Origin: a virus
Lineage: Duplodnaviria > Heunggongvirae > Uroviricota > Caudoviricetes
Length of the DNA stretch: 13,511 nt
Reading direction: 5' to 3' (one strand)
IMG/VR virus record: IMGVR_UViG_2606217106_000016
How positions within the stretch are numbered: the stretch's first letter is position 1; each line of letters begins with the position of its first letter. Shown in pieces: positions 4,061 to 4,581 of this stretch. A program made the translations under genes and the position numbers. The notes under the pieces were generated by a model, which worked only from the letters and a program-made list of their open reading frames with translations, was not told the origin of the DNA and searched no databases.

Positions 4061-4346
4061 CACCACACTTATCTGCCCTGACTCTCTTTTGCGGGCTTTT
4101 TATTACAGGAAAGACACCGGACAGTGAAATGTTAAATGCCTCACAATTCAGGCAGTTGACTGTTGCCTGACATGCTGAGCGTTTGTTAAAAAAATCCTGC
4201 ATGATGAATCCCCCTGAGCGGCGGGGCATAATGACAGATGTTTGGTTGCGTATTGTATAGGCAAGTTGCGGATTCTGTCTGGTCATTGCAGAATTCACCG
4301 GGAGGCACCCGGCATCATGCTGTATACAGAGATTAGGCATATATCC

Positions 4347-4372
4347 AGGCTCCTCATCGCAGGAGCCTTTTT
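4347..4372 (+). terminator. Rho-independent terminator (perfect 8-bp stem AGGCTCCT/AGGAGCCT, 6-nt loop, T5)
   Basis: aggctcct-catcgc-aggagcct-ttttt; likely terminator of the tRNA transcript. Confidence 0.6.
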
Positions 4373-4378
4373 ACATGC

Positions 4379-4403
4379 AAAAAAAGCCCGAGTGGGTTCG
4401 GGC
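4379..4403 (-). terminator. Rho-independent terminator on the minus strand (stem GCCCGA/TCGGGC followed by T7 on the minus strand)
   Basis: Plus strand aaaaaaa-gcccga-gtgggt-tcgggc; reverse complement gives hairpin followed by TTTTTTT. Convergent with the 4347-4372 terminator. Confidence 0.5.
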
Positions 4404-4463
4404 AACAGCATGAGATACTTGCATTGTCATTTTTATCGTGTGGATTTTAACCAGGGTTTATAA

Positions 4464-4494
4464 GGCTGCGCAACTGCGCGGCCTTTTTCGTTTT
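4464..4494 (+). terminator. Rho-independent terminator (8-bp stem GGCTGCGC/GCGCGGCC with one G-U pair, loop AACT, T-rich tail)
   Basis: ggctgcgc-aact-gcgcggcc-tttttcgtttt, about 90 bp upstream of the nanS-p start. Confidence 0.55.
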
Positions 4495-4581
4495 GCGGGC
4501 TGCGGTTCTCCTCTTTTGATTCTCCGTATAGCCGGACTGTGGCCCGCACTGTTGAGGAAAATCCCTGAAAGGGGAGGAATA

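Follow-up and report, generated by a model that had tools for sequence, protein, structure and literature searches.

The interval 4061-4581, which separates a tRNA cluster from a nanS-p homologue, is very probably the standard small RNA (sRNA) cassette of lambdoid (Stx-type) prophages, located between the tRNA/cargo site and nanS-p and present here as a stx-free allele, not as a scar of toxin loss. The cassette has four parts. The first is a plus-strand STnc100-family sRNA of about 210-250 nt, ended by the first of three terminators. The second is a convergent minus-strand sRNA of 51-56 nt, EcOnc03, of the AgvB/AsxR "anti-sRNA" family. The third is a putative conserved plus-strand terminator (the third hairpin) overlapping the EcOnc03 -35, and the fourth a junction of ~25-39 bp at which toxin phages have their stx operons. 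The sRNA pair is already known; the present result bears out Tree et al. 2014 (PMC4104026) and later work, with slight refinements. RefSeq is blank for the interval in hundreds of E. coli genomes, and this is why it looked "empty". The initial annotation saw the 520 bp as the toxin position, holding only terminator-rich non-coding DNA. Only 4102-4140 matches the toxin position, and the remainder is taken up by two sRNA genes recognized by Rfam. The interval is thus a conserved sequence of known function in non-Stx lambdoid phages, the very outcome that the initial annotation had named as refuting its reading. The features of the region are as follows, the window being the whole 13,511-nucleotide stretch that was analysed.

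2433..2888, plus strand: Q antiterminator gene, 5' 152 codons (Pfam Antiterm PF03589; the intact homologue has 273 aa)
2889..3700, minus strand: truncated IS1414 (IS256 family) fragment, 99.9-100% identical to IS1414 copies
3772..3800, plus strand: sigma-70-like promoter TTGATT-17-TATTAT from a consensus scan (9/12 matches), putative in function
3811-3886, plus strand: tRNA(CAT) (ARAGORN, Rfam tRNA)
3894-3970, plus strand: tRNA-Arg(TCG) (ARAGORN, Rfam tRNA)
3984-4060, plus strand: tRNA-Arg(TCT) (ARAGORN, Rfam tRNA)
4061..4101, plus strand: tRNA trailer ending in GCGGGCTTTTT, homologous to the sequence before the stx2A region of 933W
4102..4126 (against Stx1 phages) or to 4140 (against 933W), no strand: unoccupied stx site, from homology breakpoints
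4127..4140, plus strand: conserved AAATGTTAAATGCC motif, candidate -10 for the plus-strand sRNA
4141..4378, plus strand: STnc100-family sRNA (Rfam RF02076 match at 4170-4378)
4379..4437, minus strand: EcOnc03 sRNA (published 51-nt sequence matched exactly at 4382-4432)
4444..4473, minus strand: candidate EcOnc03 promoter, -10 TAAAAT at 4449-4444, -35 TTGCGC at 4473-4468, 18-nt spacer
4462..4495, plus strand: rightward intrinsic terminator, AAGGCTGCGC-AACT-GCGCGGCCTT then TTTCGTTTTG, from scan, folding and conservation
4496..4581, plus strand: nanS-p 5' leader, GGAGG Shine-Dalgarno at 4573-4577
4582..6516, plus strand: intact nanS-p, 644 aa, ATG at 4582 (Pfam DUF1737, SASA and DUF6645)

The two convergent sRNA genes

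The plus-strand gene scores 176.7 bits against the STnc100 model (gathering score 47) and covers model positions 1-206 of 206. It is the homologue of EcOnc28 in the Sakai prophage Sp9 and of EcOnc27 in Sp5. In its intrinsic terminator the stem spans 4347-4368 and the T-run ends at 4372. Among 13 diverse variants, compensatory double changes occur in 6 of the 33 predicted consensus pairs and include the A-U of the window at a pair that is G-C in most variants. Taken as a whole, the 249-nt plus-strand RNA has a fold only slightly better than that of shuffled sequences (z = -1.4). Northern blots gave sizes of 235 and 247 nt for EcOnc27, which would place the 5' end at about 4134-4146, an uncertain estimate given the Rfam start at 4170. 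The AAATGTTAAATGCC motif sits just upstream of this implied 5' end and is kept downstream of stx1B and in many variants; a strong sigma-70 consensus for the plus-strand sRNA is not present. The eleven STnc100 copies listed for EDL933 all have RNA-seq reads, and a Northern blot confirmed one of them.

The minus-strand gene, EcOnc03, was first mapped in prophage Sp9 of E. coli O157:H7 Sakai as an Hfq-bound RNA (Tree et al. 2014, PMC4104026). Its isoforms of 56, 54 and 51 nt have 5' ends near 4437, 4435 and 4432 and a 3' end near 4382, and a CLASH read beginning GATAAAAATG sets the 5' end at 4437. The terminator has its stem at 4403-4386 and its U-run at 4385-4379. Transcription would start near 4437 from the TAAAAT -10 and end at the second terminator, giving an RNA with a conserved 3' body and an allele-specific 5' end. 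Upstream, CTGGTTAAAAT and GCAGTTGCGCAGCC are conserved in all four anti-sRNA alleles. A small RNA between the second and third terminators had been suggested for either strand: the suggestion is right for the minus strand, where EcOnc03 runs from 4437 to 4382. A structured RNA confined to 4404-4463 was rejected (z = +1.4 and +0.9 for the two strands, no better than shuffles); the real minus-strand RNA runs on beyond this segment through the second terminator.

Members of the anti-sRNA family are 51-60 nt long: 14-18 nt of variable 5' sequence precede a conserved 3' region of ~42 nt, in which a Rho-independent terminator lies (Tree et al. 2014, PMC4104026). The window copy has this length, 3' region and terminator, as seen from the exact match, the models and the hairpin. 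It also has the family layout, with 4379-4437 (minus) facing STnc100 at 4170-4378 (plus) and nanS-p following from 4582. Against the AgvB and AsxR models its 3' part is conserved and its 5' part, GAUAAAAAUGACAAUGCAAG, is divergent. The AgvB match (RF02702, 4379-4438, minus strand) is marginal, 56.6 bits against a gathering score of 56, and AsxR (RF02703) reaches 46.8 bits, under its gathering score of 63. Although the former lies just over threshold, an assignment to AgvB was rejected: the CACAACA mimic of the GcvB R1 target is absent from the minus-strand 5' region of the window, and the RNA is the EcOnc03 allele.

The evidence on behavior comes from identical or homologous copies in Sakai and EDL933, for which transcription, transcript sizes, Hfq binding and CLASH contacts with ompC and eptB mRNAs have been reported. 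Among the unannotated RNAs recovered by Hfq CRAC the identical Sakai EcOnc03 ranked third, and it is destabilised in delta-hfq (PMC4104026). RNase E-CLASH recovered EcOnc3-ompC as 7 hybrids in both replicates and also found EcOnc3-eptB. Genes of cation and iron homeostasis are over-represented among the EcOnc3 targets, and in the EcOnc-mRNA tables (Table EV7) the mRNAs are contacted through the conserved region, not the 5' variable region. Antagonism of a core sRNA through the 5' variable region has been shown only for AgvB (against GcvB) and AsxR (against FnrS). In the searched literature naming EcOnc03 no partner sRNA is reported, and a role of this allele as a core-sRNA antagonist ("anti-sRNA") is putative.

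Convergent sRNA pairs downstream of the PR' moron site were described in eight Sakai prophages, Sp3, 4, 5, 9, 10, 11, 15 and 17 (Tree et al. 2014, PMC4104026). The EcOnc28/EcOnc03 pair of Sp9 shares with the window the order tRNAs, sRNA pair, nanS-p homologue, S and R. The Sp9 layout is ileZ3, argO3, a 523-bp gap, the nanS-p homologue, S and R, and it is to this gap that EcOnc28 (plus) and EcOnc03 (minus) were mapped (PMC4104026). Window positions 4061-4500 are ~100% identical to the Sp9 copy, and the EcOnc03 sequence is identical. The two loci differ further to the left. Sp9 has two tRNAs (ileZ3 and argO3), one fewer than the window, and upstream a methylase and an intact Q of another kind (DUF1133 type); in the window Q is truncated by IS1414 and pR' is missing.

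Other relatives have the same module in different company. Downstream of stx2B in Sp5 and 933W lies a homologous module of the same order and orientation, the EcOnc27 (sRNA103 in EDL933)/AsxR pair, which shares with the window the conserved blocks, the anti-sRNA 3' body and the third hairpin. Its central STnc100 segment differs from that of the window, and its anti-sRNA is AsxR (5' end CGAUUAUUAAAACGAG, FnrS antagonist) in place of EcOnc03. AgvB, the anti-GcvB sRNA of Sp10 and Sp17, belongs to the same family, with 3' body, terminator and promoter conserved, but is defined by the CACAACA mimic that the window lacks. The Stx1 phages H-19B, BP-4795 and YYZ-2008 and the Shigella phages 7888 and 75/02 have an EcOnc03 gene and promoter 97-100% identical to those of the window, the same third hairpin, and an STnc100 gene identical in parts. 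Last, PasD/STnc100 is a ~200-nt structured sRNA directly upstream of a prophage esterase gene; such sRNAs occur in EPEC and EHEC prophages and are found widely among pathogenic E. coli (Zhu, Shabalina & Storz 2026 preprint, doi 10.64898/2026.05.13.724894). By its score the window copy belongs to STnc100 itself; PasD is described as a diverged relative with a different seed.

Terminators and the state of the prophage

Three terminators had been noted at 4347-4372 (plus), 4379-4403 (minus) and 4464-4494 (plus), and the scan confirmed them there as hairpins with T-runs at 4347-4368 (plus), 4403-4386 (minus) and 4462-4485 (plus). Terminator-like sites number 4 in 3600-4700, as against 1.2 +/- 1.0 in shuffles. 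In folding, the first hairpin has z = -4.1 and the third z = -2.8; the 59-nt minus-strand RNA of which the second is a part has z = -2.2 as a whole. A hairpin after argO (4075-4096), considered as a fourth terminator, was rejected; it is degenerate in the window (z = -0.04, not significant), whereas the 933W version looks intact.

The first two terminators are the terminators of the two convergent sRNA genes. The third overlaps the EcOnc03 -35, and the candidate promoter of EcOnc03 lies under it. This hairpin is identical in 933W and the Stx1 phages, has two changes in phi296, and is kept together with the anti-sRNA promoter region across all four alleles. Of its three variant forms elsewhere, two retain pairing, as G.U, in the plus-strand RNA but not in the minus-strand one. 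Most likely this hairpin and the STnc100 terminator between them halt, ahead of nanS-p and the lysis genes, any rightward transcription lacking Q modification. Such transcription would come from tRNA, cargo or sRNA promoters, and the sigma-70-like promoter at 3772..3800 adjoins the tRNA cluster on its upstream side.

The nanS-p gene begins at 4582 as had been noted. Its Pfam domains give the NanS-p architecture of a prophage sialate O-acetylesterase homologue, and the annotations of its homologues read SASA family carbohydrate esterase or NanS.

The initial annotation had missed both the truncation of Q and the deletion of pR' by the IS1414 fragment. The Q reading frame breaks off at codon 152 of 273; what remains is 99.8% identical to the 5' part of the intact gene WP_000762902.1. 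The IS1414 fragment stands in for the 3' half of Q, for pR'/tR' and for the genes normally found between Q and the tRNAs; its ORF at 2792-3622 (minus) corresponds to only positions 16-246 of 379 in Pfam Transposase_mut. The match to the intact prophage L002 picks up again at 3693. The prophage is defective, having a truncated Q, no pR' and no morphogenesis genes. A search with the whole window found no record with at least 80% coverage among complete E. coli genomes, and the window is therefore a unique mosaic or remnant. Since Q is truncated and pR' deleted, any share of the sRNA output that comes from processing of the late transcript would be lost; in this remnant both sRNA genes would be expressed from their own promoters.

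The toxin site and the origin of the stx-free state

From the tRNAs onward the order of the Stx-phage late region (tRNAs, [stx], nanS-p, S, R, Rz) is kept relative to 933W, as the initial annotation had seen. The tRNA triplet ends at 4060 by ARAGORN; the cluster (3811..4060, plus) is of the ileZ/argN/argO type and 91% identical to that of 933W. Upstream of it Q is cut and pR'/tR' replaced, and downstream stxA and stxB are absent. A tblastn search of the whole window with Stx1A/B and Stx2A/B gave a best E of 0.17 and no match inside the interval, and short-word blastn with the stx operons gave only 12-16-nt chance matches outside it. The claim that the interval has no StxA or StxB ORF thus holds, and the residual toxin fragments that had been proposed as a check are found neither in the interval nor near it.

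Alignment with 933W locates the breakpoints. Window positions 3808-4101 are 91% identical to the DNA upstream of stx2A, the match ends at 4101, and it restarts at 4141, from where 4141-4683 are 77% identical to the DNA downstream of stx2B. Between these counterparts 933W has a 1,341-bp segment that includes stx2AB. Homology to Stx1 phages restarts at 4127. With breakpoints at 4101 and at 4127 or 4141, the true unoccupied toxin site is, by homology, only ~25-39 bp (4102-4126/4140).

The junction is common. Of 5,426 complete E. coli genomes, 491 have positions 4062-4170 intact, at 769 places, and so do 7 phage records, none of them named as Stx-converting. At least 3 of the 7, the annotated phi296 and two "PPwrbA" prophages, are evidently stx-negative, and the filler of the junction is found in phi296 with one mismatch. 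The locus represents a stx-free allele, common and long-lived, in a region built as a block mosaic; it is not a deletion scar.

A recent loss of stx1, in which a Stx1 prophage ancestor had stx1AB deleted or recombined with a toxin-free prophage, is unlikely but has a number of observations on its side. On this reading the EcOnc03-type module would be the form of the cassette proper to Stx1 phages. All 57 of the 57 deposited phage records with EcOnc03 and its promoter are named Stx1-converting or are otherwise Stx1 phages, and in the IMG/VR sample stx1 lies upstream of 7 EcOnc03 loci and stx2 of 0. Window positions 4301-4420 are 100% identical to Stx1 phage YYZ-2008, and 4381-4620 are 95-100% identical to Stx1 phage 7888. 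However, Stx1 phages carry stx1AB directly upstream of the module and have no tRNA cluster; their left flank is unrelated, sharing nothing with the window left of 4127, and identity over 4141-4300 is only 50-82%. A simple deletion, whether from a 933W-like or a Stx1 phage, was rejected on these block-wise identities and unrelated flanks. The 39-bp filler is also common to unrelated stx-negative Traversvirus phages. Among the EcOnc03-type loci sampled in IMG/VR, 17 have the empty junction against 7 with stx1; in complete genomes the junction, which also occurs outside EcOnc03-type loci, is present in 491. Homologous recombination in the conserved blocks may have replaced the allele, which would leave no scar and would be indistinguishable from never having had the toxin.

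That the interval encodes small proteins, for example from a 73-codon TTG ORF at 4242-4463 (plus) or a 19-codon ORF from ATG 4201, is highly improbable. Such mechanical ORFs do exist, hypothetical proteins are annotated here in some phage records, and the homologous region is overlapped by YYZ_gp41 and several PHANOTATE calls. Some of the EDL933 STnc100 copies also have ribosome footprints, their ribosomal coverage reaching at most 3.2. Against this, the RNA helices persist among the homologues despite indels of lengths not divisible by three and an exchange of the whole central segment. The short ORF varies in length (19 codons here, 11 in 933W) and lacks a Shine-Dalgarno sequence, and PGAP calls nothing in the interval.

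An empty slot of terminators only, be it a loss scar or a spare non-functional spacer, has almost nothing left to recommend it: it would explain the missing toxin genes, the flanks syntenic with Stx phages and the RefSeq blank, but it is already refuted by two curated RNA families at gathering score and the exact EcOnc03 match, and compensatory changes in the RNA structure, the absence of stx remnants and the conserved, widespread junction also stand against it. Moreover, Stx phages keep the same module downstream of stxB; it is not a replacement of the toxin, and its presence says nothing on toxin loss.

Meaning for annotation and Stx-phage biology

For annotation, the sRNA cassette means that an interval left blank by RefSeq holds two experimentally documented prophage sRNA genes. 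For the biology of Stx phages, the toxin insertion point is fixed to a junction of ~25-39 bp upstream of the sRNA module, and the stx-free form of this junction is a common, conserved allele. There is in addition a strong association of allele with cargo, EcOnc03 occurring with stx1 or nothing and AsxR with stx2. These clarifications leave the current understanding unchanged.

A more tentative idea, for which the odds are judged to be against, is that EcOnc03 is the Stx1-phage counterpart of AsxR, each toxin type travelling with a particular anti-sRNA allele, and is kept in toxin-free loci such as this Q-less remnant for a host benefit of its own, as a domesticated module whose 5' "seed" would have an undiscovered core-sRNA target. 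If so, the host benefit may act, for example, via the envelope and iron-homeostasis CLASH targets ompC, eptB, bfr, fieF and mntH.

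Convergent sRNA genes between the tRNAs and nanS-p

The initial annotation described the interval 4061-4581 as an empty toxin slot containing three terminator-like hairpins, set between a tRNA triplet ending at 4060 and a nanS-p gene starting at 4582. ARAGORN and the domain and consensus scans found all of these features where they were claimed. The coordinates are accurate but the headline interpretation is not, because two sRNA genes fill the interval. The features of the region are:

2889-3700, minus strand: truncated IS1414 fragment (IS256 family), 812 bp
3811-3886, plus strand: tRNA (CAT), ARAGORN
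3894-3970, plus strand: tRNA-Arg (TCG), ARAGORN
3984-4060, plus strand: tRNA-Arg (TCT), ARAGORN
4127-4140: conserved AAATGTTAAATGCC motif, just upstream of a projected sRNA 5' end at ~4134-4146
4347-4368, plus strand: first terminator-like hairpin, consensus scan
4403-4386, minus strand: second terminator-like hairpin, consensus scan
4449-4444, minus strand: candidate EcOnc03 -10, TAAAAT, fitting a 5' end at 4437
4462-4485, plus strand: third terminator-like hairpin, consensus scan
4473-4468, minus strand: candidate EcOnc03 -35, TTGCGC, inside the third hairpin
4582 (ATG)-6516, plus strand: nanS-p ORF, with GGAGG at 4573-4577 ahead of the start
9136-9687: Rz
10597-11205: DUF4376 ORF
12020-13138, minus strand: lambda-type integrase of a second prophage, with excisionase and exonuclease

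The ORF at 4582-6516 has the domain order DUF1737, SASA esterase and DUF6645, which is the architecture of prophage NanS-p esterases. Its leader carries an inverted repeat, GCGGGC (4495-4500) and GCCCGC (4547-4552), a candidate 5'-UTR structure; 933W and Stx1 phages keep the CCGGAC and GCCCGC blocks of this leader. Within 3600-4700 the consensus scan gave four terminator-like sites; shuffled sequence gave 1.2 +/- 1.0. Folding compared with shuffles gave z = -4.1 for the first hairpin, -2.8 for the third, and -2.2 for a 59-nt minus-strand RNA containing the second, folded whole.

An Rfam scan of the window at the gathering threshold showed, on the plus strand, a full-length STnc100 (RF02076) match scoring 176.7 bits (gathering 47) at 4170-4378 and, on the minus strand, an AgvB-family match scoring 56.6 bits (gathering 56) at 4379-4438. 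The 3' body and terminator of the minus-strand RNA are those conserved in the prophage "anti-sRNA" family, and its 5' end differs from AgvB's and from AsxR's. A third member of this family is EcOnc03, whose sequence Tree et al. 2014 print in their supplement (PMC4104026); window 4382-4432 (minus strand) matches the published 51-nt EcOnc03 exactly. In E. coli O157:H7 Sakai, EcOnc03 maps to prophage Sp9 and has isoforms of 56, 54 and 51 nt; it is Hfq-bound, loses stability without Hfq, and faces a plus-strand RNA, EcOnc28 (PMC4104026). Sakai prophages Sp3, 4, 5, 9, 10, 11, 15 and 17 carry convergent sRNA pairs, placed downstream of the PR' "moron" site (Tree et al. 2014, PMC4104026). The Rfam matches, the exact EcOnc03 match and the Sakai pairs thus identify each of the first two hairpins as the terminator of a published sRNA gene, the two genes being convergent. 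The Sp9 region has the gene order Q, methylase, ileZ3, argO3, a 523-bp gap, nanS-p homologue, S and R, and is ~100% identical to window 4061-4500. The module at 4061-4581 is already known, widespread and experimentally documented.

The 5' end of EcOnc03 was placed at 4437 from a CLASH read of EcOnc3 starting GATAAAAATG. The -10 and -35 elements are kept upstream of all four anti-sRNA alleles (128 sampled loci). The fourth 5'-variable allele (CGAUUAUAAAAAUGUAUAUCUCAUGC...), present at 25 of these loci (e.g. IMG/VR loci L010, L017, L018 and L028), differs from the consensus of each of AgvB, AsxR and EcOnc03, and its upstream DNA has no stx and no empty filler. The STnc100 structure of the plus-strand RNA includes 6 base pairs with compensatory changes among 13 diverse variants. 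Its 5' end would fall either at 4170 (Rfam start) or at ~4134-4146, as projected from the Northern sizes of EcOnc27, the STnc100 copy of Sp5 (235/247 nt; Tree et al. 2014, PMC4104026). The AAATGTTAAATGCC motif may be its -10.

Position of the toxin genes and origin of the junction

The alignment to 933W proposed in the initial annotation placed breakpoints at 4101 and 4141, around the stx2AB segment. Window 3808-4101, the tRNAs plus 41 bp, is 91% identical to 933W, and 4141-4683 is 77% identical, its 933W counterpart beginning 46 bp past the stx2B stop codon. Between these blocks lie 1,341 bp with stx2A and stx2B in 933W and 39 bp in the window. Two Stx1 phages, YYZ-2008 and Shigella phage 7888, show homology to the window after stx1B, from 4127 on; their left flank is unrelated and without tRNAs. 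These breakpoints confine the unoccupied site to 4102-4126 (up to 4140 relative to 933W) rather than 4061-4581; the real unoccupied toxin site is a short junction left of the sRNA module. An STnc100 copy occupies the equivalent position in all five comparison loci; opposite it lies AsxR in 933W and the EcOnc03 allele in the two Stx1 phages. The reported absence of stxA and stxB from the interval holds across the whole window, where tblastn found no Stx1/Stx2 coding remnants (best E = 0.17, outside the interval) and short-word blastn for stx gave only chance matches of 12-16 nt.

The junction 4062-4170, counted as intact at a coverage of at least 80%, occurs in 491 of 5,426 complete E. coli genomes (769 places, at most 4 per genome) and in seven phage records: phi296, phi315, phi367, TL-2011a, two "PPwrbA" prophages and Lahn2. 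None of the seven is named Stx-converting, and phi296, the one inspected, has no stx gene in the tRNA-to-NanS gap. This short-tailed Traversvirus has 933W-like flanks and shares the window's 39-bp filler with one mismatch. Sp9 matches the window in every block. The others match it only locally: YYZ-2008 at 100% over 4301-4420, 7888 at 95-100% over 4381-4620, and phi296 at 98% over 4101-4140. Such a mosaic is the pattern that homologous exchange at conserved blocks would make, and the comparison with these four showed no visible deletion footprint. The locus is therefore read as a common stx-free allele. An stx1-bearing allele once present and replaced through recombination is an improbable history for it. 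It is not read as the toxin-loss scar that the initial annotation offered as one of two origins.

At ~3060-3130 of phi296 (locus L006), the position of the anti-sRNA gene in other phages is taken by a different minus-strand hairpin (AAAAAAGCCCGCGCTGGGAGACGCGGGC); an STnc100 copy is present. This hairpin has no Rfam match and may be another sRNA type.

Transcription in a remnant prophage

Of the Q antiterminator gene in this prophage remnant, about 152 of 273 codons are left. The IS1414 fragment takes the place of the rest of Q (its 3' half), of pR'/tR' and of the genes that usually separate Q from the tRNAs. Terminase, head and tail genes are absent from the window. Downstream of Rz lie a tail-fibre N-terminal fragment, a piece matching the potB attachment region and, after it, the integrase end of another prophage. 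Homology to the late regions of other prophages ends near 9780, and within 9700-13511 the gutted prophage meets its neighbour at potB. Since Q is cut and pR' is gone, late Q-dependent transcription is impossible here, and the late operon (nanS-p, S, R, Rz) is without its promoter. The tRNAs and sRNAs would have to depend on their own promoters. A sigma-70-like site (TTGATT-17-TATTAT) at 3772-3800 lies directly ahead of the tRNA cluster, within the 118 bp left beside the IS1414 fragment, and could drive the tRNAs without pR'.

The third hairpin has the same sequence in 933W and Stx1 phages and two changes in phi296. Its variants elsewhere take three forms. Two, GGCC to GGTC and CGCGG to CGTGG, would be A.C mismatches in the minus-strand RNA but stay paired as G.U in the plus-strand RNA; the remaining one (one locus) breaks a pair on both strands. 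Pairing kept on the plus strand in two of the three forms points to selection on a putative rightward terminator. With the STnc100 terminator, the third hairpin would halt rightward transcription not modified by Q ahead of nanS-p and the lysis genes. Possible sources of such transcription are the promoter-like site at 3772-3800, cargo promoters and the sRNA promoter. Polymerase modified by Q would pass both terminators.

sRNA function and association with toxin cargo

In EDL933, 11 STnc100 copies are listed, with RNA-seq reads for all and a Northern blot for one (PMC5331693). EcOnc27 binds Hfq, and over-expressing it reportedly increases the espA and fimZ transcripts (PMC12711010). Outer membrane vesicles from STEC strains were found to contain STnc100 (PMC12370729), and PasD, sited upstream of an esterase gene, is related to it (2026 preprint, doi 10.64898/2026.05.13.724894). 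AgvB antagonizes GcvB and AsxR antagonizes FnrS (PMC4104026); no sponge target for EcOnc03 is reported in the literature searched. RNase E-CLASH recovered EcOnc3-ECs3104 hybrids (7 reads, both replicates) pairing via GCUGUUGCCC, and EcOnc3-ECs4425 contacts; the EcOnc3 target set is enriched for cation/iron homeostasis genes (mntH, fieF, bfr) (PMC5286369). ECs_3104 was confirmed as ompC and ECs_4425 as eptB.

The EcOnc03 gene with its promoter has a full-length match (at least 80% coverage) in 702 of 5,426 complete E. coli genomes, at an identity of at least 95% in 535. Allele and cargo were compared among the IMG/VR matches listed and our own loci, a redundant sample. There, stx2 lies upstream in 16/16 AsxR loci, and the 27 EcOnc03 loci have stx1 in 7, the empty junction in 17 and stx2 in none. 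Among deposited phages, 57 records contain EcOnc03 together with its promoter, and every one of them is an Stx1 phage, either by its name as Stx1-converting or on other grounds; H-19B, H30, BP-4795 and 7888 are among them. In these redundant samples, which are not de-replicated, the association is strict: AsxR goes with stx2, and EcOnc03 with stx1 or the empty junction, never with stx2. It is the sole aspect of the locus that goes slightly beyond statements found in papers.
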